Part shown: positions 42,889-54,657 of the stretch, one piece after another
Position numbering within the stretch: the first letter of the stretch is position 1
How the letters are laid out: each line of letters opens with the position of its first letter
Assembly (NCBI GenBank): GCA_944371605.1
Contig: CALVXU010000009.1
Location: 56,866-120,865, forward strand
DNA from: an uncultured Bacilli bacterium
Lineage (GTDB): Bacteria; Bacillota_I; Bacilli_A; RFN20; CAG-288
Length of the DNA stretch: 64,000 bases
Direction of reading: 5' to 3'
Translations under genes and position numbers: made by a program
The notes under the pieces: generated by a model
Seen by the model: only the letters and a program-made list of their open reading frames with translations
Database searches by the model: none
What the model was told of the DNA's origin: nothing

Positions 42889-44898
42889 ATGTCATATAAG
42901 TTTAATGTCCAAGAAAAGAAATATGGAACTATTAGGCAACAATTCTATGAACTTCCTGATAGAGGCTTATGCAATTTTTATAATGGTGACAGCAAGTTAT
43001 TCTTCAAAACATTAAGCGGTAAAAAGCTGAACAAAAATCAATATTTAGTCTTCCAAAGCGAAGCGTTTGATTCAAAAAATATCGACTTATTTCAAAACAA
43101 ATATTTGAGCTATATCCCTAAATGTGATGCTTTAATAAACAACAAGTCAATCAAAGAAAATCTCGAACTTGCCTTTTTAGTTTCGCAGTTAGAATATCGT
43201 CTAGATTCGATCAAAGAGCTTTTTTCACTCGTTGACTTAGCTTATAGCGATGATTATCTCGATGTTTTCCTAGATCTCAAAGTAAAAAGACTCACACGTT
43301 TAGATTATTTTAAGCTTTCACTAGCTATCTCTCTTCTTAAAAAGCCAAAGATTATCATCATAGAAAGTATGAATAATCTGCTGAATGATGATATGATCGA
43401 TTGTTTAAATATCATTAAAAAACTGAGCCGAGATCGTGCGATATATGTCTCATGTAAAAATGATTCAAAAACAAAATTATATTTTGATTTTGTAGTAGAT
43501 TTAAAAGAACTCAAACCGATAAAAATAGCTGAGAATAGTGAATTTTATTATCACTATGATTATGGTGATTTATCACATAAAAATTCTGATTCATCTGTGA
43601 TAAAGCAATCATTAAAACATAACAAAGCCTCCATCTGTTCAATGATTGCTCTAACAAGTGTCATCTTTGGACTTTTCACTACTTCTATATCTTTATATTC
43701 CACTGATAGTCGCGCTTTATTCATCGATAAGCTATATGAAAATGATGTCGATTCATTGATGATTGAAAAAAAATATATGCGTGCCGATGGTCATAGCGGA
43801 AGCTATGATATCATTGATTATGACTTCGATGAAGAAGAGAAACAAAGAATAACTGAACATAACAATAATAGCAGTCTATTTATAGATGTTTTGCCTTCAT
43901 CTTTTAGCATTCAAAATAATGTCATCGAGAAAATTGATACTTTTAGTAACCTATATTTTCAAGAAATATATGGTTTAGAGATCACTGATAAAACAACTGC
44001 TGACTGTTTGAATTTAAAGCCTGTCAATTTTGAATCACGCTTTCCAAAAAACAAAGATGAGATCGCTTTGACCGATTATCAGGCTAATCTTCTTTGCAAT
44101 TATGGGCTCAGTGAAACAACCAGTCATTTGACACCGACTGAACTGATCGGTAAAAAATATAATGGTTTAACAATCACTGGAATATTTAAAACCAGCTATG
44201 ATGATTACCAGACTTATAAAGAATATATAAATAATGAAGATAAATTGACTGATGATATTTCAAATATTGCTAGAGGTTTTACTTTAGATAAATGCTTTTT
44301 CGTCTGCGATGATTTCTTCGCAAATATCAATCAAGATTTTAGTGGTTATAATAAAGCATTTATTCGATTAAGCGGTGATAGAAATAAAGATATCAAGTTT
44401 ATAAATACTTTTAAAAATGATCGGACATTTATCGAACTTCACGGCAAGTATGAAAACTATTTCATCATTTTGTTTAATGTCTTCCAAGTCAAGAACACTT
44501 ATCGCAATATCACTAATTGGGTTAATGATAGTAATACTAAAATGTGGGCTATCATAATCTCAATAACTGTCTTTGGCTTGATATATGAAGTTCTCATGCT
44601 CTTAATCATCAATCGCAACACGATAAAAGAATTATTGCTGTTAAATAATTTAGGTGCCGAAAGAAAAATGATCAAGTCGCTTCTAATAAAAAAGATGCTT
44701 ATCATCGGCTTAATCGAACTCATATCCAGTTTAATCATCTCAGTGATCAGCTGCATAGTGATCAATCACTTCATAAATTTCACAATCTCTAATATAACCA
44801 TAATCGGAATACTCATCTGCACTATTTTAATCATCTTCGCCCTGCTTCTAACTTCCGCAATCATCATGAACAGATATCACAAAAAGATCAAAGAATAA
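42889..44898 (+). CDS. MacB/FtsX-like permease fused to degenerate ABC ATPase domain
   Basis: LTRLDYFKLSLAISLLKKPKIIIIES resembles signature/Walker B; no Walker A; 1 TM + large loop + 3 C-terminal TM. Confidence 0.65.
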   Translation: MSYKFNVQEKKYGTIRQQFYELPDRGLCNFYNGDSKLFFKTLSGKKLNKNQYLVFQSEAFDSKNIDLFQNKYLSYIPKCDALINNKSIKENLELAFLVSQLEYRLDSIKELFSLVDLAYSDDYLDVFLDLKVKRLTRLDYFKLSLAISLLKKPKIIIIESMNNLLNDDMIDCLNIIKKLSRDRAIYVSCKNDSKTKLYFDFVVDLKELKPIKIAENSEFYYHYDYGDLSHKNSDSSVIKQSLKHNKASICSMIALTSVIFGLFTTSISLYSTDSRALFIDKLYENDVDSLMIEKKYMRADGHSGSYDIIDYDFDEEEKQRITEHNNNSSLFIDVLPSSFSIQNNVIEKIDTFSNLYFQEIYGLEITDKTTADCLNLKPVNFESRFPKNKDEIALTDYQANLLCNYGLSETTSHLTPTELIGKKYNGLTITGIFKTSYDDYQTYKEYINNEDKLTDDISNIARGFTLDKCFFVCDDFFANINQDFSGYNKAFIRLSGDRNKDIKFINTFKNDRTFIELHGKYENYFIILFNVFQVKNTYRNITNWVNDSNTKMWAIIISITVFGLIYEVLMLLIINRNTIKELLLLNNLGAERKMIKSLLIKKMLIIGLIELISSLIISVISCIVINHFINFTISNITIIGILICTILIIFALLLTSAIIMNRYHKKIKE

Positions 44899-44920
44899 AG
44901 AAAAGGTTTTAAATAAATAT

Positions 44921-44952
44921 AAAAAGGATGTGAACTAAATCACATCCTTTTT
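44921..44952. terminator. bidirectional terminator
   Basis: AAAAAGGATGTGA-ACTAAA-TCACATCCTTTTT between convergent genes. Confidence 0.9.
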
Positions 44953-44975
44953 ATTATCTAGTCATCAAGATTTGA

Positions 44976-47900
44976 TTAATCTTCTTCTTTCTTTTTTAAA
45001 TTCTTTCGATAATATTCAAAGCCGAAGAAGCCGATAGAAGCGGCGGTGAGAACACCTAAGACGCTATCAGCAGCGATTAATCCGATCTGATAAGGAGTGA
45101 GAACATGGACCAAACGAGTATTAGAATCCCAGCCATTCATAGCAGATGAATGACAAACAGTATAAAGAATACGTTTGGCTGATTCTCTCATCTTCCATGC
45201 GAGTTCTCCATATCCTTCTTTATAAGCATCGAATTGAGAATTGATATTAGCACCATCGACAAGATCGTTTCCGCAGAAAACCCCATAAGGCATCTTCAAT
45301 AGTCCCATGTAGAAGGTTAAAGTTCCGTATTGTTGAAGCATATACATATCAGTGACAACAAAACCATCAAATCCTTCTTCACCTCTCAACCAATCAGTCA
45401 AAAGATTTGAACTAGCCCCAGAGACAGAGGTTCCAACACGATTATAAGAACTCATCATAGCATGAGCATCACCTTCTTCGATAGCGATTTGGAAAGCTTC
45501 TAAATACAATTCACGGAAGCTCTGTTCATTAAGCCATGTAGAAAGACCATAACGACTAGTCTCTTGGTCATTTAAAACGAAGTGTTTGATATAGGCATAG
45601 ACACCTTTGGATTGAATACCAGCGACTTGAACACTCGCTGTCTTGCCGGATAAGAAACCATCTTCAGAATAATATTCAGGATTGCGAGAAGAGTATTGAG
45701 TGCGGTGGAGGTTCATAGCTGGTCCATAAATACCTTTATAACCAGCCCAAAGACAATTTTCACCATACATCTTACCAACTCTATCGATCAATTCAGCATT
45801 CATAGTCGAAGCTAAGACACCAGCAGCCGGGAAAGTTGAAGGTCTTGCAGTCGGATCTTCATTATTTTTATAAGCTAATCCATTTTGACTAGTAGCGAAT
45901 AATTCAGTGACACCTAGAGGACCGTTATGATCAAGGGTTGCAGGTTTGCCGAGAACACCTTCAAGACCAGCAGTGGATCTCATACCATTAGAGAGAAGTT
46001 GGACAGTATCATCCCAAGTGAGCTGATCGAGATAAGTATCCCAAATGTCAGCATCATAAGGGATTTCGTTTCCATCAGTATCCTCTCTTAAACTGACTAA
46101 AGACAAGCCATTATTAGCACCATATGTCGGATACTCGATATCATCTTTTTGAAGTAGGCTTTCATCCCAACCAGTGCGGAAATCTTCAAGCATCTTTTTA
46201 GTCATCGTGATCTTAGTATAACTATCATTGTTATCAAGAGAATCTAAAACCACAGTGCCTTGCCAATCGTTTCTAGTGATGTAGGTGACAGGAGAGGTGT
46301 CTTTGGTCTCAGCATATTTGTTCAAATCAGCATTATCGAATAAATTAGTGATCTTTTGACCAGTCGCTTTAGATGTGGAATACTTAGTCGTGTCAACTTC
46401 TTCTTGGTTCAAAGCAACTTTAGCTAAAGAAGCATCACCTTCATCATCCATTCTGCCATCAGCAGGAGAATAACCTAGATTAGCCAATAAATTATTAGTT
46501 GCATCGTGAGCACCATTACCTAAAACTAGATAATATTCGCCTGGAGTTAAGACATAAGTCTTCGAAGTGTTAGCATCATAAGAAGCGAATTGACGACCGT
46601 CGACAGTATATGTGATATTTTCTGTATCGCCAGGTTCTATCAAAGGAGTTTTTTGATATCCGACTAATTCAACAGCACTTGCCTCGATGCCATTTTTAAT
46701 ATTGTAGTCAGTATATGGTTTTGATAAATAGATCTCGACAACATCTTTTCCAGCGACATCACCGCTATTTGTGACATCAACTGAAACCTGATAATCGTCT
46801 CCAGTTCTGCTCACTTTGTAATTAGAATAGGTGAATTCGGTGTAAGATAAACCGAAACCGAAAGGAACAGCAACTGTCGAAGCATAGTCGAAATCACCAG
46901 TCTTTTCCCTATTAGCCACATAATCAGCATAACGTGTTTCTGTGTAACGATAACCGAGATAAATGCCTTCTTGATAAACGACATAATGTCCTTCATAACC
47001 ACCGACACCATCAGTCGCTTCATGCAAAGTCAAACCATCAGGATTTAAGAACTCATATCCTAATTGATTGGTCAAAGTCGGATTTTGATCATTAGAATAC
47101 CAAAGAGTATCATTGCTCTTGCCAGAAGGGTTAGCATTTCCAGCTAATAAATCACCGACACCATTAAAGCCAGTAGTACCGACCGTTTGTATCTGTAAAC
47201 AAGCATCGATTCCGAATTCCTCATCATCTAGGAAACCTAAATCAATCGTGGCTGTGCAGTTTAATAAGACGATGATCTTTTTGACTGTTCCAGCATCTTT
47301 TAAAGCTTTTAAGCCGCGTAAAACGCTCATCTCATCATTAGATAATGTCAAAGCATCACCATTCGGAGTGTTTTCAGTTCCAGAACGATTGACGTCTTTG
47401 TTTCCTTCACCAGAAACACGAGTGATATTCATTATTGCTGCATCACCATATTGGGCGATAGATGAACCAAAACCAGCATTAGCGACATCCCAAGGAACTT
47501 CACCAACTCTTTGAATCAATGGATTAGGAGTTCCCATACCATTTCTTTGAGTGCCATAAGTCGATTGGACTTCAGAATCACTGTAATAATCCCAAGCGGT
47601 TGGATTGACTTCAAAACCAGCATGTTCTAATCCTGCTTTCAAAGTGACTTCACGACCAGTAGCGCTTGAGCTAGCGACTGAACCTGAAGATGTTAAGCTT
47701 GAGACAACAGAAGCGATGCCGACAGTGGTAACCTTAGAATTTTTAGCAAGTGGCAAAGCTTCGTTTTTATTCATGATAAGAACAGCACCTTCTTCCACTT
47801 CCTCTTCGATGAGTTCATCAGTATCTTCAATCAAATCATCTAAGTGCTCATACTCAGATTTATAATATTCGGTATCTTTTTCTTCACCATCAGCCGCTTC

Positions 47901-48050
47901 ATCTTGAACAATCTCCCAAGAAGTGGTGCCTAAAGCAGTATTGATTGCTAAAACATTCTCATTGCAGATGACGGTAGTCAAAATAGACAAACCTAAAAGA
48001 GAAGCAAAAGTAGTCAAACAAATCTTACTCGCAGTATATCTTTTACTCAT
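44976..48050 (-). CDS. second membrane-anchored permuted GH3 glycosidase
   Basis: GAVLIMNKNEALPL, YQEGIYLGYRY, PFGFGLSY, GPAMNLHRT, EYYSEDG, KHFVLNDQET, FVVTD; TM at both ends. Confidence 0.92.
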   Translation of the reverse strand: MSKRYTASKICLTTFASLLGLSILTTVICNENVLAINTALGTTSWEIVQDEAADGEEKDTEYYKSEYEHLDDLIEDTDELIEEEVEEGAVLIMNKNEALPLAKNSKVTTVGIASVVSSLTSSGSVASSSATGREVTLKAGLEHAGFEVNPTAWDYYSDSEVQSTYGTQRNGMGTPNPLIQRVGEVPWDVANAGFGSSIAQYGDAAIMNITRVSGEGNKDVNRSGTENTPNGDALTLSNDEMSVLRGLKALKDAGTVKKIIVLLNCTATIDLGFLDDEEFGIDACLQIQTVGTTGFNGVGDLLAGNANPSGKSNDTLWYSNDQNPTLTNQLGYEFLNPDGLTLHEATDGVGGYEGHYVVYQEGIYLGYRYTETRYADYVANREKTGDFDYASTVAVPFGFGLSYTEFTYSNYKVSRTGDDYQVSVDVTNSGDVAGKDVVEIYLSKPYTDYNIKNGIEASAVELVGYQKTPLIEPGDTENITYTVDGRQFASYDANTSKTYVLTPGEYYLVLGNGAHDATNNLLANLGYSPADGRMDDEGDASLAKVALNQEEVDTTKYSTSKATGQKITNLFDNADLNKYAETKDTSPVTYITRNDWQGTVVLDSLDNNDSYTKITMTKKMLEDFRTGWDESLLQKDDIEYPTYGANNGLSLVSLREDTDGNEIPYDADIWDTYLDQLTWDDTVQLLSNGMRSTAGLEGVLGKPATLDHNGPLGVTELFATSQNGLAYKNNEDPTARPSTFPAAGVLASTMNAELIDRVGKMYGENCLWAGYKGIYGPAMNLHRTQYSSRNPEYYSEDGFLSGKTASVQVAGIQSKGVYAYIKHFVLNDQETSRYGLSTWLNEQSFRELYLEAFQIAIEEGDAHAMMSSYNRVGTSVSGASSNLLTDWLRGEEGFDGFVVTDMYMLQQYGTLTFYMGLLKMPYGVFCGNDLVDGANINSQFDAYKEGYGELAWKMRESAKRILYTVCHSSAMNGWDSNTRLVHVLTPYQIGLIAADSVLGVLTAASIGFFGFEYYRKNLKKKEED

Positions 48051-48062
48051 ATTCGTTAACTC

Positions 48063-48497
48063 CTATTCAGTGACCTTATCTTTTTCGTCAACGGCCGCAC
48101 CTTTCTTATATAGAGGTAAAAAGATAGAAGCAATGCTGAAGCCATAAGTTAAAAAGTAAAAGATAAGAGAGAAAATAAAATCAATAGAAAAGCTTTCGAT
48201 ATCGATACCGGTAAAAACTGTAGCGACATAGTTGTAGCAAGCATAAATAAAGAACCCGATACCCAAAGCGCTCAAAATGGTGTTGATAGCTGGAGCGAAT
48301 TGGAACTTATCAAAAACAAATAAAGCGATATCGACTAAGATGAGGAGTAGAAAACAAACAAAAGTGCCCCAAGATTGATAACTAGTGGCTGAACCGACAA
48401 GACAGAGAATAAAAGAGATGAGAGAGAACAACATCGTAGCGAAGATGAAGTAAGAGCCTAGACTACTTCTTTTAAATCGTTCTAAAATACCTTTCAT
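48063..48497 (-). CDS. small 4-TM membrane protein (paralog of 34219-34686)
   Basis: 144 aa, GGAGG RBS, shared (L/F)AP, Y.(S/A)T.F and terminal P.(F/Y).K motifs. Confidence 0.8.
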   Translation of the reverse strand: MKGILERFKRSSLGSYFIFATMLFSLISFILCLVGSATSYQSWGTFVCFLLLILVDIALFVFDKFQFAPAINTILSALGIGFFIYACYNYVATVFTGIDIESFSIDFIFSLIFYFLTYGFSIASIFLPLYKKGAAVDEKDKVTE

Positions 48498-48585
48498 TTA
48501 CACCTCCGATAAAAGACAAGTTAAGCGGCTAAAAACTTTTGAGAAAAATAGTTTTCACATGCCATTTAACTAATAAAAATTATAA

Positions 48586-48599
48586 TTTAATCGCTTTCA
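48586..48599 (-). promoter_or_regulatory. cre-like site upstream of second GH3 cassette
   Basis: TGAAAGCGATTAAA on minus strand. Confidence 0.45.
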
Positions 48600-48643
48600 G
48601 CATATATAGACATATATTATGAAAATTAATAATATTTAGACAT

Positions 48644-48702
48644 AAAAAAAATATTTGTCAATATTCTTTGACATAATAGTCATAAAACACGACAAATATT
48701 TT
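48644..48702 (-). terminator. hairpin/terminator after SMC gene, overlapping next -35
   Basis: AAAATATTTGTC...GACAAATATTTT perfect 12-bp IR, T-tract on minus strand; TTGACA within arm. Confidence 0.55.
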
Positions 48703-48711
48703 GGGGATTTT

Positions 48712-51700
48712 TTATTTCTGTTCAGAAATCTTTTGTTCGACAAACTCTTCGACTATCGTCTTCTTTTTCTTTTCTTCATAAACATCAACGCTTGAATGTT
48801 TGCGTCTGTCATTATGGTTAGCGACTAAGATCAAGTCGACATAGCTGACTAACTCAGCCAACTTTTCACTAGGTGAAGAGATGATAGCCTGTAGTCCAAA
48901 GCTTCTCAAAAGATTAGCCGATTCCTTGATTCTCGCAGCATCCATTTTTGAGAAAGCTTCATCGAAGATGACTAATCTCAAAGTATTGTTATCTTTACTG
49001 TTCTTGGCGCGACATAAAGCAGAGAAAGAAGCTAAAATAGCGATATAGAAAGGAGTCTGAGTCTCACCACCTGATTGGGACCTGAATGAGCGGCCTAAAG
49101 AGATCGGTTGAGCGACGCTGTCTGTTCCACGATAAACGAAGAGATCGAAGACGATATATGTGGTATATCTGGTGAAAGTATCGATATTTTTTGTGATCTG
49201 TTCTAATTGTTCACCAGATGCGCTCGTCGAGGAAGAGATGAGATTGAAAAGATCATCCATAGTGGTGCGATATTTTTCCATGAATAAGCTCTCAGCATCA
49301 CCGGCTTTTAAAAGCAAAGGATCCATGATCATATTGTAATATTCGAGGTAATCCTTAGAGGGTGAGACTTTAAATTGGTAGGTGTCACGTCCGAAATGCG
49401 AATCCACTAAAGCTTGATTCAACTCTTCGATCTGTTGATAGACAGTTTCGATAGATGTGCGAAGCTTATAAACAAAGTCATCTTTGAACTCTTTGATGGA
49501 ATCATCATGCGCCTTCTTGATCTTTTCTTCATAATCCGGAAGCATGACAGTAGAAATATTTTTTAATTCTGCATCGAATTCATCGTTGGTATCTAAATTA
49601 GTAGTAGCATAGCCAAGCTTATTGGCAGCGCAATAATCCGAACGTAAGCGGATGAGATTTTCTCTCTCATATTTTTGCTTATTTGATGTTTGAATATATT
49701 CTTTGGTCGCTTCGTTTCTGATTTGAGCCAAAGACATCTGTTGTTGATCGATGAGCATATTGAAATATGGTTCATAATCACGATTAGAAAGTTCGGGATC
49801 AAAGTTGTTTAACGATGCCTTGAAACTTTCTAAAGAAGAAGTCGCTAACGGAATTTCTTCACCGTTTAAGCGATTGACTTCATTGAGTAAAGATCCTCTC
49901 TCAGTCAATAAGTCAGCACGTTCTTTTTCTATCGAAGCGATATCTTCTTTGATAGCGGAAATCTTTTTATCGAGCTCATTCATATCTCCGAGAGCAGCAT
50001 CATGCATCTGAGAATCGACATTTGAAAGATCGTTTTGAAGATTTTTGATTTCACCAGTCTTGTCGATATCAGCCTGATAGCTTTGGCATTCAGCCTCTGA
50101 CATCACCGGTAAAGCTAAAAGATTTTGAAGTTTGTTTAAAGCTTCGGTGAAAAGATTATATTTAGCCTGCATATCTTGATAATCTTTTGCAGAGATAGCT
50201 TTGGTAGAAGAAGATACTTGAGTCCCGAGATAAAACACTCTCGCATGCGCTTTATTCAAATACCAAGTAGCATATCCGCGGTAACCAGTACAATCAGATA
50301 AAAGACCTGAGCCAGAAGCTCGAGCTTCTTCGAATGAATGACATTTTTTGATTCTTCCTAATAAATAGTCAGTATAGGCTCTAGCACCAGGGTCATTTGT
50401 ATTGATGAGCTTAGCGATAGAATCCTCATTAGCTGTGATATGATTGGCTAAAAGACGATCGCTATCGACTAACGAGACATGATAATAATTATATTCGTCA
50501 GCGAGCTCCTTTAAGAGACGATTAGCTTCTTCATAGTATTTAGGATTGACAAAGAAATTGAATTTTTGATTGAAGAGAACAGCTTCTAAAGCTAAAGTCC
50601 ATTCAGGATCATTGACATCTACGAGATCACAATAAATGTTGACATATGCATCACCATGACGGTCTTTTAAAGCTCTTTCTAAAGATGATTTGATCGCCAT
50701 ATAATTAGGCCCTAATTTATCAAATGGTTTTCTGCCAGAGTTGACAGCTGATAAATCGGATTGCAACTGTTGCAAATCTTCTGATATGACATAGAGTTCA
50801 TTATTCAATTGTTGTCTTAAAGAAATGGCCTGATTCTTCAATAGATCCATGTCATTTCTAAAGACTTTAACAGCTTCAAAATCCACGCTGTCATCGTCGA
50901 TACTCTGAATGAGAGAAGAAGCCTCACTGCTGATATCTTGGCAAAGTTCTAATAACTCATCAAAAGAATTCTTGATGTTTTTACCCAAACGAGAGCTATC
51001 GAATTGCGAATAATAATTGTAGAAACTTTGGCAAGTCGATTGATAATCATGGACGTAATTGTTGAGCTTAGTCATGACTTGAGAAGCAGACATTTGAATA
51101 GAAGTTATTTTAGAAGTTATGGTGTCTTTTTTCATCGAGAGTCGTTCAGTCAAAGAGTAATTCTTAGATTGGACTTTTTTAGCATTATAAGATTCTAAAT
51201 CTGCGTTTAATTCAGCGATTTGTGAATCGAAAACTCTCAATTGATTAGAGATATAAGATAAACGATCATTGTCTTTCTTTAACTTATCGACAAAACCATC
51301 TAATCTCTTCTTCGCTTCTTCATAACTCACACGAGTGTTGACATAATTTAAAGTGTTTAAATATCGTTGATGTGTTTGATAAGAAGTGAAGACTTCTGAT
51401 ATCTTATTCAAACTTTCAACCTTGTTTCTCAACCTCTTGGCTTCTAATTCTAAAATTTTATATTGCTCGATGTTTTTCTGCATCGGTTCGATATTGATCT
51501 TTTTATCAACATCACAAATATATTCAGTGATGAAAGAAGAAATATCAGAAATCGGAGCAAAAGACACCGCCTTTTTGAAAAGTTCAAAGTATTTATCAGG
51601 CAGATTGCCATAAGCTTCTTTAATGAAGCCTTTATAATCGGTATCAGTGTCAAAGAAACGATATTGGGAAGGCTTAAAATTAGCTCTCACATAGCTTGAT

Positions 51701-52182
51701 AGCTCTTTATATTGAAGCGGTTTGATGCGATTGGAATCTTTTTCCATCTCTGAATTAGTGAAATTATTATCTAAGAAAGGTGTAGATAAATAAAAATAAT
51801 GTTTATCAATCTGATCTGAGCTATCGACATCAAAAACCACGCCTAAAGTGAAGGTCTTATTTTCGACATCATCATATATTTCAATCGCGATATAAGAAGT
51901 GAAATTACCTTTTCTTAAGTTGATCACTTGGCCGTCACCAGTCACACCTGTTTGACCTCTTAAATAGGAGATCAAAGTACGACCTGAACGAGCTTTTTCA
52001 TTGGCGGCTTTATTGAAATTTTCAGGTCTAGTCGATCCTAAAATCAAAATTTGTAACGCATCGATAATCGTCGATTTACCTGTACCGTTTGGACCGGTCA
52101 AGTAAGTGATATTTTTGATATCACATGTGGTATTTGTGAAATAATGCCAGTTGATCAAGCGAAGTTTAACAAGATTTTTCAT
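48712..52182 (-). CDS. jetC: SMC-family ATPase, JetC/MksB type
   Basis: LINWHYF, Walker A GPNGTGKST, long coiled coils, SGGETQ signature, LVIFDEAFSKMD Walker B/D-loop. Confidence 0.85.
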   Translation of the reverse strand: MKNLVKLRLINWHYFTNTTCDIKNITYLTGPNGTGKSTIIDALQILILGSTRPENFNKAANEKARSGRTLISYLRGQTGVTGDGQVINLRKGNFTSYIAIEIYDDVENKTFTLGVVFDVDSSDQIDKHYFYLSTPFLDNNFTNSEMEKDSNRIKPLQYKELSSYVRANFKPSQYRFFDTDTDYKGFIKEAYGNLPDKYFELFKKAVSFAPISDISSFITEYICDVDKKINIEPMQKNIEQYKILELEAKRLRNKVESLNKISEVFTSYQTHQRYLNTLNYVNTRVSYEEAKKRLDGFVDKLKKDNDRLSYISNQLRVFDSQIAELNADLESYNAKKVQSKNYSLTERLSMKKDTITSKITSIQMSASQVMTKLNNYVHDYQSTCQSFYNYYSQFDSSRLGKNIKNSFDELLELCQDISSEASSLIQSIDDDSVDFEAVKVFRNDMDLLKNQAISLRQQLNNELYVISEDLQQLQSDLSAVNSGRKPFDKLGPNYMAIKSSLERALKDRHGDAYVNIYCDLVDVNDPEWTLALEAVLFNQKFNFFVNPKYYEEANRLLKELADEYNYYHVSLVDSDRLLANHITANEDSIAKLINTNDPGARAYTDYLLGRIKKCHSFEEARASGSGLLSDCTGYRGYATWYLNKAHARVFYLGTQVSSSTKAISAKDYQDMQAKYNLFTEALNKLQNLLALPVMSEAECQSYQADIDKTGEIKNLQNDLSNVDSQMHDAALGDMNELDKKISAIKEDIASIEKERADLLTERGSLLNEVNRLNGEEIPLATSSLESFKASLNNFDPELSNRDYEPYFNMLIDQQQMSLAQIRNEATKEYIQTSNKQKYERENLIRLRSDYCAANKLGYATTNLDTNDEFDAELKNISTVMLPDYEEKIKKAHDDSIKEFKDDFVYKLRTSIETVYQQIEELNQALVDSHFGRDTYQFKVSPSKDYLEYYNMIMDPLLLKAGDAESLFMEKYRTTMDDLFNLISSSTSASGEQLEQITKNIDTFTRYTTYIVFDLFVYRGTDSVAQPISLGRSFRSQSGGETQTPFYIAILASFSALCRAKNSKDNNTLRLVIFDEAFSKMDAARIKESANLLRSFGLQAIISSPSEKLAELVSYVDLILVANHNDRRKHSSVDVYEEKKKKTIVEEFVEQKISEQK

Positions 52183-52184
52183 AT

Positions 52185-52940
52185 TTATTTATCTCCATCA
52201 TTGAAGTCGACAGGAATATCAACTCCCATCTTGGTTTCCACAGGAGTAGCGACGTCATTAAAATCGCTTTTAGTCTCCTCTTCTTTCGGAGCACTAAAAG
52301 TGTTGAAGAGCATCGAAGAATTGCTCTCTTCAGGTTTTTGTGTGAGGAAGGAATATAAATCATTCATTTTTTCAGTGGAGATGACATAACGAATGGTGGG
52401 GAGAATATAGAATTTATATGAAGGATCACCATAAGTATTGCTGTATCTAGTGATGATGTTAAAAGAGTCTAAAGTTCTTAAAGAAGAAGCGATAGTCGCT
52501 AAAGAAAGGCGTTTGGAAATATTAGATAATCCGCTTTCTTGTAACAGAGACATCAAACTGCTCGAGCTCATCAAGACATTTCTTTCTTGAGGATCCTTAC
52601 TGATAGCTGATTCATAGAATGAACGAAGCGCATAGACTAATAAAGTGGTGACGATATCTAAACGAAGATGATTCATCTCGATGTCTGATACGATAAAAAT
52701 GACACCGTCATCATCGTCTTTAGTCAAAGTCACATCGATAAAAGCAAGATATTCTTCGATCAAAGAGAAATGTCTTTCGATGAATAAATACGTCGGATCT
52801 GCTTTGAACATCTGGCTTTTTCGATCATAAGCTTTCCTCAAAATAAACTCTTTATAAAGGAGTTCATTGATGGCTTCAGAAAATTGATTTTTTTCTCCAC
52901 GAGTCAATTTATCATATTCTTCTTGAAACATCTTTATCAC
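52185..52940 (-). CDS. jetB: JetB/MksE-like (DUF4194-like) KITE subunit
   Basis: Position directly upstream of SMC; GVIFI, TTLLVYALRSFYE, ILPTIRYVI resemble DUF4194 proteins. Confidence 0.7.
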   Translation of the reverse strand: MIKMFQEEYDKLTRGEKNQFSEAINELLYKEFILRKAYDRKSQMFKADPTYLFIERHFSLIEEYLAFIDVTLTKDDDDGVIFIVSDIEMNHLRLDIVTTLLVYALRSFYESAISKDPQERNVLMSSSSLMSLLQESGLSNISKRLSLATIASSLRTLDSFNIITRYSNTYGDPSYKFYILPTIRYVISTEKMNDLYSFLTQKPEESNSSMLFNTFSAPKEEETKSDFNDVATPVETKMGVDIPVDFNDGDK

Positions 52941-54409
52941 CTCTTATTATTCTTTTTTCTTGTAAATCTATATAACGGCATATAGTAATTAGCATATTCA
53001 ATACGATCAGAAATTTTAGTCGCTTCATATGGGATGACACCTAAATTAGCCTTGATGACTGCTAGAATCCATAAGACTAAGTTATCTAACACTGTTAAAT
53101 CGACATCGGTGTTGACTAATTCATCCTTTCCTTCCATATGAGATGATAAGAAATCTAAGATGGCTGAATCAGAAAAACGCGTCAATTGCCTGTTCATAAA
53201 TTCATCCATCAAAGCGCTCTGCTCTTCAGGATAGAATTCATCATCCAAAGGTAAAAACTCTCCTTCTTCAACTTGATTTCTTTTGAAAGGCATCGTCAAA
53301 GACTGCGAATCGAAAAAGCCTTGTCTATTCAATATCAATGTCTCATGGGCGCGATTCAATATCGGCATTTCCTCATATCTTAAAGCGGGATTGTTTTTGA
53401 TTTCATTAGCCATCGACAAAATGATGGCATCGATTTTACCTTTAGTCGTCTTATCAGAGGCTGACAAATAATTTATCTTTCTCTGAACAGCTTCAGTATA
53501 ATTAGCATTAGCGACATCGATATCATTAAAAGCGGTTGTAAGACGTGAAAAAATATCGATGATTTCTTGAATGATTTTGATGATTTCACTAGCTAGAGTC
53601 GCTTCTTCTTTCTTTTGATTCATCGGTTCAGCTTTCGCCTCTTTGACAAGAAGTGAAATGATTCTCTCGCTTTTTAACCAGCGGTTGAGTATGGTGATGG
53701 TCGGCAAAGAATAAAGGCCTAACGAATCGAAAGTCTTCATCGGATGATAATACTTATCAGATATCGAGAGACGATATTCATCGAAGTGCTGTTTTAAAGC
53801 GACATTCGGATCTAAGACTGAAGTCAAGCGATTGCCAAAAACACAGATCTGTTGTCTGAGCAAGGTGACTGACATCTCGATAGTATCTGCATTAGTCCTA
53901 GCATTCATAAGAGAGCGGTACATATAATCGTCTTCTTTTTCATCTTCCATCTTCAACTCAGCATATGTTTGATGAACTAAAGGTAAATAAGAGCCGACAT
54001 CCGAGGTGATTTCATCTATAATCTTTAATAATTGAATGGAATAAGCAGGGATATAAATATATTCAACATTATTCTTTTTAGGATCTTTAGAGATGATGAA
54101 CCAACCGCAACTAGCTAATTTTCTGATGATATAAGAGACTTTTTGATTTAATTCAGTATCCGAATCATCGACAGCGACTTCTTCGCTTTCATCTTTATCA
54201 TCCAACTTATCAGTTTCGATATTAAAAAGAGCCATCAGCTCTTCGCCTTGACTCCGTAAAAGAGAAGCAAAATCGCTTCTTTTGATATCCGTTTTATATA
54301 ATTTTATGCAGTGATATAAACACACTAAAGCAAATGCATAAATCGCTTTATATTTTCTAGCGAGCGGAGAGAAGAGCTCCCCTGGAATTCTATCAAATAA
54401 TCTAGCCAA
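52937..54409 (-). CDS. jetA: JetA/MksF-like (DUF5716-like) kleisin subunit
   Basis: LFDRIPGELFSPLA N-terminus, IRKLASCGWF winged helix; first gene of 3-gene operon, TTG start with GAAAGG. Confidence 0.65.
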   Translation of the reverse strand: MARLFDRIPGELFSPLARKYKAIYAFALVCLYHCIKLYKTDIKRSDFASLLRSQGEELMALFNIETDKLDDKDESEEVAVDDSDTELNQKVSYIIRKLASCGWFIISKDPKKNNVEYIYIPAYSIQLLKIIDEITSDVGSYLPLVHQTYAELKMEDEKEDDYMYRSLMNARTNADTIEMSVTLLRQQICVFGNRLTSVLDPNVALKQHFDEYRLSISDKYYHPMKTFDSLGLYSLPTITILNRWLKSERIISLLVKEAKAEPMNQKKEEATLASEIIKIIQEIIDIFSRLTTAFNDIDVANANYTEAVQRKINYLSASDKTTKGKIDAIILSMANEIKNNPALRYEEMPILNRAHETLILNRQGFFDSQSLTMPFKRNQVEEGEFLPLDDEFYPEEQSALMDEFMNRQLTRFSDSAILDFLSSHMEGKDELVNTDVDLTVLDNLVLWILAVIKANLGVIPYEATKISDRIEYANYYMPLYRFTRKKNNKR

Positions 54410-54641
54410 GATATTATTAACCTTTCACATAACTACCGAATAAAATTATAACTTGCTATTTTTTTTAATACAATAATAAATAAAATAATTTATTCATCAA
54501 TAGCAATTCTTTTTTAAGAAACAACTTTATTTTGAAAGTTGAGTAGGCATCTCATCAGCAGCATTTTCACCCATTTTTTTAAAAAAAGTGAGACCTCCGA
54601 ACTCTTTTTTTCTTATTTTTTACCTAAAAAATGATTTCAAG

Positions 54642-54650
54642 TGATATAAT
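54642..54650 (+). promoter_or_regulatory. extended -10 promoter, leaderless geometry
   Basis: TG-A-TATAAT, 7 nt, then ATG at 54658; no SD. Confidence 0.65.
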
Positions 54651-54657
54651 CGCATAG

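Follow-up and report, generated by a model that had tools for sequence, protein, structure and literature searches.

A JetD-less type I Wadjet operon in Candidatus Enterosoma and the order RFN20: a likely domesticated condensin in place of Smc-ScpAB

In the 64,000-nucleotide stretch of DNA analysed here (hereafter the window; C9:56866-120865 of the host assembly), three genes on the minus strand between positions 48712 and 54409 form a complete and intact type I Wadjet JetA-JetB-JetC operon without the nuclease gene jetD. We consider it likely that this operon encodes a domesticated MksBEF/MukBEF-like condensin that has replaced Smc-ScpAB. This reading is based on gene content, ATPase motifs, the missing JetD, Smc, ScpA and ScpB, clade-wide vertical inheritance, synteny and purifying selection, while the stoichiometry of the complex, loop extrusion and a role in chromosome folding and segregation are proposed by analogy with the solved JetABC and MukBEF structures and with the genetics of MksBEF in P. 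aeruginosa. An earlier, sequence-only reading of this DNA had offered two interpretations, a condensin replacing Smc-ScpAB and a loop-extruding sensor with an effector encoded in trans. The former is the better supported, as neither a jetD elsewhere in the genome, nor a jetD at this locus in relatives together with a normal Smc-ScpAB, came to light.

The first gene of the operon, jetA (52937-54409, minus strand, 490 aa, TTG start), encodes a kleisin-like protein that matches PF18982 (DUF5716; 1.2e-60, model positions 28-434 of 434) and the PADLOC model JetA1 (PDLC00449, 1.1e-82). It is followed by jetB (52185-52940, minus strand, 251 aa, GTG start), encoding a MukE-like KITE protein recognised by PF13835 (DUF4194, 1.9e-17) and JetB1 (PDLC00502, 1.4e-63), and by jetC (48712-52182, minus strand, 1156 aa), encoding an SMC-like ABC ATPase with a long coiled coil and a hinge, which is matched at full length by JetC1 (PDLC00519, 7e-289, JetC residues 1-1142) and, in Pfam, by AAA_29, SbcC_Walker_B and weakly by SMC_hinge (20.2 bits, residues 519-622). 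The genes jetA and jetB overlap by 4 nt, 2 nt lie between the stop of jetB and the start of jetC, and with a GC content of 0.35-0.36 the operon does not differ from the rest of the genome. The ATPase motifs of JetC are intact (Walker A GPNGTGKST, signature SGGETQ, Walker B/D-loop FDEAFSKMD), and all three are kept in 76 JetC relatives across families, whether linked to JetD or not. The sequence-only description of a kleisin/KITE/SMC operon in which Walker A, signature and Walker B are intact is thus borne out by exact coordinates and by Pfam and PADLOC matches. In alignment, the JetB of the window shows a 7-residue insertion (YDRKSQMFKADP) in its first winged-helix region, which is common to all RFN20 core JetB proteins and is not present in any non-RFN20 lineage sampled, as well as an acidic and unusually long C-terminal tail that is variable within the genus. 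The operon is itself neither Smc-ScpAB nor MukBEF proper: the hinge of JetC falls below the 22.5-bit cut-off of PF06470 and JetA and JetB match PF18982 and PF13835, not ScpA (PF02616) or ScpB (PF04079), while on the MukBEF side the sole match is a marginal MukB_N (24 bits against a 23-bit cut-off), with no MukF or MukE family reported.

The host is a 1.43 Mb metagenome-assembled genome (MAG) of Candidatus Enterosoma, order RFN20, consisting of 33 contigs and 89.9% complete; the genus has been assigned to the GTDB order RFN20, family CAG-288 (PMC8035907). The absence of JetD, noted earlier for both flanks of the operon, extends to the whole assembly, in which profile searches returned 0 candidates for JetD_C (PF09983) and DUF3322 (PF11795) and tblastn with seven JetD proteins of relatives, including two from the genus of the host, did not produce a match. 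JetA, JetB and JetC queries matched only this locus by tblastn. A normal Smc-ScpAB alongside the operon was not found either. The best host match to SMC_hinge (12.9 bits, C15) lies in a 1045-aa protein that was rejected as Smc, its sequence being by eye that of a membrane protein with hydrophobic C-terminal segments, and SMC_N retrieved just RecN-size (552 aa) and RecF-size (371 aa) proteins and ordinary ABC nucleotide-binding domains. All host open reading frames (ORFs) that have an N-terminal Walker A and a length of 700 aa or more were inspected, and the split-head SMC layout was seen only in JetC. For ScpA the profile search of the host genome gave no match, and the sole match to ScpB (14.4 bits, C10) was rejected because it is a MarR regulator.

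The same pattern is found across the order, which consists of gut bacteria with small genomes and for which 151 RFN20 genomes were searched with profiles for JetA, JetD and the SMC hinge. JetA was detected in 124 of these genomes, representing 38 of 47 genera and including 26 of the 27 genomes of the host genus, and the genomes without it belong mainly to a single family (f3); JetABC orthologues occur in many MAGs, with identities from 79% down to 44%. JetD scored above the cut-off in just 11 of the 151 genomes and, wherever the DNA was examined, was located at a second, separate and divergent jetABCD locus, while none of ~55 loci orthologous to the one in the window carries jetD. In the genus of the host, such an accessory jetABCD is found in genomes G105 and G134. 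A canonical SMC hinge was found in none of the 151 genomes. No hinge score exceeded 31 bits, and nearly all of the weak matches fall in an ORF of ~1100-1190 aa beside jetA, which places them in JetC's own hinge; in the controls, B. subtilis and L. lactis, the same search detected a canonical hinge at 81-117 bits.

Beyond the order, 200 Bacilli genomes were cross-tabulated for the SMC hinge, JetA and JetD. The hinge was present at 81-117 bits in 109 genomes, Mycoplasma-size ones included. JetA without an SMC hinge was observed in 30 non-RFN20 genomes belonging to five families, only one of which genomes has JetD, at a second locus. Exact JetB sequences identify among these families Acholeplasma laidlawii (ACL_0434), Candidatus Izemoplasmatales with "Mycoplasmatota bacterium WC30", and "Mycoplasmatota bacterium zrk1/WC44". 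In the Smc-bearing families of this sample JetA is missing or belongs to a complete jetABCD, with the exception of family f12 ("Mycoplasmatota bacterium", 2.3-3.6 Mb), where Smc is accompanied by a syntenic JetD-less jetABC located ~15-25 kb from smc (loci L120-L123, L129 and L132) and often also by a separate complete jetABCD (L124, L125, L130, L131 and L141), giving up to three SMC-type systems per genome. This family, a sister family, is possibly an intermediate stage of the takeover.

These two samples bear directly on the explanation that JetD and Smc-ScpAB only seem to be missing, as an artefact of an incomplete MAG or of profile models that overlook divergent homologues. The completeness and contig number of the host assembly leave some room for this, as do the profile search, which scores only candidates passing a loose first filter, and the failure of SMC_hinge to detect B. 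thetaiotaomicron in the control set. However, the outcome is the same in all 151 RFN20 genomes, the single-contig genomes G025 and G145 included, and in closed Acholeplasma and Mycoplasmatota genomes, the hinge model finds the Smc of Mycoplasma-size genomes of the class, and by inspection JetC alone has the split-head SMC layout among the long host ORFs with an N-terminal Walker A. An artefact is therefore very improbable.

Vertical inheritance of the JetD-less operon is supported by a maximum-likelihood tree of 76 JetC proteins, in which the RFN20 core JetC proteins group together with a support of 100 and each of the families is monophyletic; the sister group of this clade, with a support of 96, consists of Izemoplasmatales and two further families. 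JetC proteins linked to JetD are only ~25% identical to the JetC of the window, are placed in other parts of the tree and include near-identical pairs that come from different families, as seen for L062 (f7) versus L066 (f5) and L064 (f7) versus L119 (f33), with JetC branch lengths of 0.01-0.08; such near identity across families indicates recent horizontal transfer of jetABCD among gut Bacilli. Synteny, compared at ~55 loci from the order and the class, follows the same division. The JetD-less operons have flanks that are conserved within each lineage: in most RFN20 families the order is glgB-like, plsC, (AMP-ligase, DUF1624), jetABC, glgC, glgD, glgA, and in Izemoplasmatales it is dnaJ, PadR, jetABC, rsmE, mtaB-like, phoH, ybeY, cdd, era, recO, while the RFN20 family f2 has downstream genes in common with the Izemoplasmatales locus. 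The JetD-bearing loci have no flanks in common. The JetD-less operon is therefore vertically inherited and chromosomal, not accessory or mobile.

Selection on the operon was estimated by comparing the window with one relative that is 83% identical in DNA and ~95% in protein (96% for JetA). The dN/dS ratios were 0.022 for jetA, 0.032 for jetB and 0.024 for jetC, compared with 0.062 and 0.075 for two neighbouring genes; as dS is near saturation (~1.0-1.3) these ratios are rough, although their ranking is clear, and the operon is under stronger purifying selection than its neighbours. This observation also concerns the view that the locus is a recently decayed Wadjet remnant, in which the loss of JetD is fresh and jetABC is heading for pseudogenisation, as the missing JetD and a few fragmented jetA pieces at second loci elsewhere (G076 C32) might suggest. 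Three intact ORFs, motifs kept across families, orthologues spanning the identity range given above in many MAGs, dN/dS values of 0.02-0.03 and the monophyly of families in the JetC tree all speak against decay, which is refuted by these conservation data and has next to no probability left. As a marker of domestication, the loss of the N-terminal JetD-binding helix of JetB was considered and dropped as inconsistent: the JetB proteins of RFN20, Izemoplasmatales and the zrk1 type begin at the conserved core without an N-terminal extension, whereas Acholeplasma JetB retains the extension and some JetD-linked JetB proteins are without it.

A further explanation is that the system is still immune, i.e. 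that JetABC senses small circular DNA by extruding it completely and then hands it over to an unrecognised effector encoded in trans, or neutralises it without cutting, for instance by compacting it, silencing it or blocking its partition. Type I Wadjet defence models do match the proteins at full length, and the only solved relatives of JetC, those of E. coli GF4-3 (8as8 and others) and P. aeruginosa (8dk1-3), are anti-plasmid proteins. In addition, genus g25 of family f3 has a giant nuclease protein directly upstream of a JetD-less jetABC, and swapping of effectors may therefore occur. On the other hand, no fourth gene is conserved beside the core operon at the ~55 loci compared and the host has no JetD-like Toprim protein. 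The operon occupies a fixed housekeeping site, its tree follows taxonomy and its dN/dS lies below that of metabolic neighbours, while defence systems usually show the opposite. Moreover, genomes that need plasmid cleavage have an extra, complete jetABCD, and immunity leaves unexplained why Smc is absent where the JetD-less operon is fixed. An immune function of this kind thus appears unlikely, though clearly less so than an artefact; the sensor with a trans-encoded effector keeps a place among the candidates at that level, and no conserved partner gene at the core loci supports it.

The g25 arrangement is seen in three genomes, where the giant protein is encoded on the same strand as jetABC and upstream of it (L054 3-5822, L073 13187-19000, L074 1-5811). 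It exceeds 1936 aa, its gene running to the edge of the region, and contains DUF4011, superfamily 1 helicase domains (AAA_11/AAA_12) and an REase_MTES_1575 nuclease domain, and the adjacent jetABC is of the "accessory" sequence type. This protein could be an alternative effector in place of JetD.

Several points weigh against a domesticated condensin as the sole SMC complex of these organisms. The proteins are still recognisably type I Wadjet, with the PADLOC defence models matching at full length, and from this resemblance a residual anti-plasmid role may persist. ScpA and ScpB were searched for in the host genome only, whose assembly stands at 89.9% completeness, and the sequencing runs that hold the locus are DNA metagenomes only (chicken gut and others), with no RNA run among them. 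At least 20 genomes of family f3, 96-100% complete and ~1.1 Mb in size, lack both JetA and any SMC hinge; they include G003, G011, G018, G024, G030, G054, G060, G066, G071, G079, G082 and G085, among others, and appear to have no SMC complex apart from a possible RecN. It follows that the complex is dispensable and that no SMC complex is strictly necessary in these small genomes.

The proposed history of the condensin begins with a type I Wadjet ancestor from which the JetD Toprim nuclease would have been lost long ago, after which JetABC would have settled into the core genome of RFN20 and its sister lineages and been passed on vertically. As in the solved structures, a JetA dimer carrying JetB dimers would bridge two JetC dimers in a dimer-of-pentamers, and this assembly is predicted to extrude DNA loops in an ATP-driven manner. 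As there is no nuclease for it to switch on, extrusion would fold and individualise the chromosome and plasmids would not be cut, and JetABC would serve as the only SMC complex and condensin of the cell in place of Smc-ScpAB.

The host genome also encodes a ParA-ParB pair at C9:23603-25160, ~32 kb before the start of the window. ParB was located by tblastn with B. subtilis Spo0J and then examined with Pfam and NCBIfam, giving matches to TIGR00180 (60.4 bits, cut-off 58.45), HTH_ParB and, weakly, ParB_N, with a degenerate N-domain motif; a search by regular expression for GERRxRA and ENLQRE had returned no ParB, which proved to be a false negative. Where canonical ParB has GERRxRA and ENLQRE, its CTP-binding and Smc-recruiting motifs, the host protein has GAKRFLLA and ENIIAEN. 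The altered motifs might be in keeping with a lineage in which Smc loading at parS has ceased.

Nuclease-less complexes of the Wadjet group are already known, namely MukBEF, the MksBEF of P. aeruginosa and mycobacterial MksB. The P. aeruginosa MksBEF has the same kleisin/KITE/SMC operon without MksG/JetD as the window; however, Smc-ScpAB is kept alongside it, whereas none is detectable here, and its host belongs to Pseudomonadota, not Bacillota. MukBEF has replaced Smc-ScpAB in enterobacteria (PMC10586767; bioRxiv 10.1101/2020.05.18.101659) and is described as a member of the Wadjet/Mks group without a nuclease (PMC10586767; PMC7617805). Found in E. coli and related gamma-proteobacteria, it is thus nuclease-free like the RFN20 operon and represents a lineage-wide replacement of Smc-ScpAB, but it is highly diverged, belongs to separate Pfam families and has MatP and topo IV as partners of its own. 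The RFN20 proteins are still ordinary type I JetA, JetB and JetC proteins, with matches to PF18982 and DUF4194 and only 24 bits for MukB_N, and the RFN20 case looks like a much less diverged takeover; the host also still has its ParA-ParB pair. The complete type I Wadjet systems used for comparison (JetABCD of E. coli GF4-3, 8as8/8bfn/8q72, and of P. aeruginosa PA14, 8dk1-3, MksBEFG of C. glutamicum and EptABCD of M. smegmatis) have homologous JetA, JetB and JetC, the same gene order and the same ATPase motifs as the operon in the window. They differ from it by the presence of JetD, which is found here neither at the locus nor in the genome, and by an accessory location where this locus is core and syntenic; within RFN20, complete jetABCD is a separate, divergent and horizontally moved lineage found in 11/151 genomes.

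Several Wadjet-group members have been reported to lack MksG/JetD, and Data S1 of Buermann et al. 2025 lists nuclease-less "FEB" operons, among them those of "Tenericutes bacterium GWF2_35_184" and "GWF2_57_13" (PMC7617805). In the text and supplements of that catalogue that were searched, FEB is linked neither to missing Smc-ScpAB nor to vertical inheritance across a clade, and the names Acholeplasma, Enterosoma and Izemoplasma were not found in the supplementary files searched (PMC7617805). In mycobacteria, MksB is nuclease-free, with a proposed role at the chromosome and replisome, while the JetD-bearing EptABCD defends against plasmids (PMC11329512). This pair mirrors the core-plus-accessory arrangement of some RFN20 genomes, although mycobacteria retain Smc, which is absent here.

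A single origin of all JetC proteins from JetD-less, Smc-less lineages was rejected by the approximately unbiased (AU) test (p = 0.00013), for a group that was defined after inspection of the tree. As these proteins do not form one clade, the loss of JetD, or the loss of Smc with fixation of JetABC, has probably been repeated. It is an evenly poised proposition that nuclease-free type I Wadjet repeatedly took over the condensin role from Smc-ScpAB in Mycoplasmatota-related Bacilli, in at least three events by the JetC phylogeny: one in RFN20 together with Izemoplasmatales and two further families, one in Acholeplasmataceae and one in the family of "Mycoplasmatota bacterium zrk1/WC44".

The surroundings of the operon in this genome are partly conserved and partly peculiar to the species. 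Upstream of jetA, the intergenic region 54410-54657 (minus strand for jetA) is shared with a divergent gene, earlier named as DUF1624, which matches HGSNAT_cat, the current name of that family, and contains a candidate sigma-70-like promoter (TTGATG-16-TATTAT, 54500-54473, minus strand) by consensus match alone. An ftsK gene close by, also pointed out in the sequence-only reading, is present as FtsK/SpoIIIE at 62797-63999, ~8 kb further on. The terminator reported in that reading was not confirmed: in the 214-nt AT-rich spacer at the end of the operon (48498-48711, minus strand), which was read and scanned for terminators, the consensus scan gave no canonical hairpin on the minus strand. In this spacer a number of short words resemble one another (AATATTTGTC, AATATTGACAAATATT, ATATATGTCTATATATG), and the plus strand has several promoter-like matches; the spacer could be a regulatory region for the membrane-protein and GH3 genes that follow.

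Between jetC and glgC, three genes are inserted at window positions 42889-48497, whereas loci of the same genus run from jetC directly into glgC-glgD-glgA; the three are unique to this species among ~80 loci and lie outside the system. They comprise a 144-aa ORF (48063-48497), by eye a small multi-pass membrane protein, a GH3 enzyme of 1024 aa in which the Pfam C-terminal domain (residues 90-367) precedes the N-terminal domain (738-906), and an FtsX-like protein of 669 aa on the opposite strand. The 144-aa ORF was rejected as a fourth subunit, having no family match, a membrane-like sequence by eye and no counterpart at any other locus.

In the literature searched, no statement was found that RFN20, Acholeplasma or Izemoplasmatales swap Smc-ScpAB for a fixed JetD-less JetABC, and queries combining Acholeplasma, Mollicutes or RFN20 with Wadjet, Mks or SMC loss returned nothing relevant. 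It has been speculated in reviews that MukBEF and MksBEF began as Wadjet defence and later came to organise chromosomes, but the examples known so far are ancient and have diverged strongly. The lineages described here provide a less diverged, clade-wide natural experiment on the transition from defence to housekeeping, in which the same type of motor occurs as a mobile accessory jetABCD with its nuclease and as a fixed, constrained operon without it, sometimes in one genome, and in which the canonical condensin is missing where the nuclease-free form is fixed (f12 keeps Smc). For annotation, this means that defence finders should not label these operons as Wadjet immunity and that the lack of Smc in these MAGs does not reflect a gap in the assembly; for thinking about minimal cells, it is relevant that some RFN20 genomes are without any SMC complex. 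If repeated takeover is true, these Bacilli would hold several young, independent replicas of the MukBEF takeover, and in several genomes a domesticated motor and an active JetABCD would share one cell. One of these replicas would be that of Acholeplasma laidlawii (jetABC: ACL_0434 with the two genes beside it), which is cultivable, so that the transition from defence to housekeeping is directly testable.

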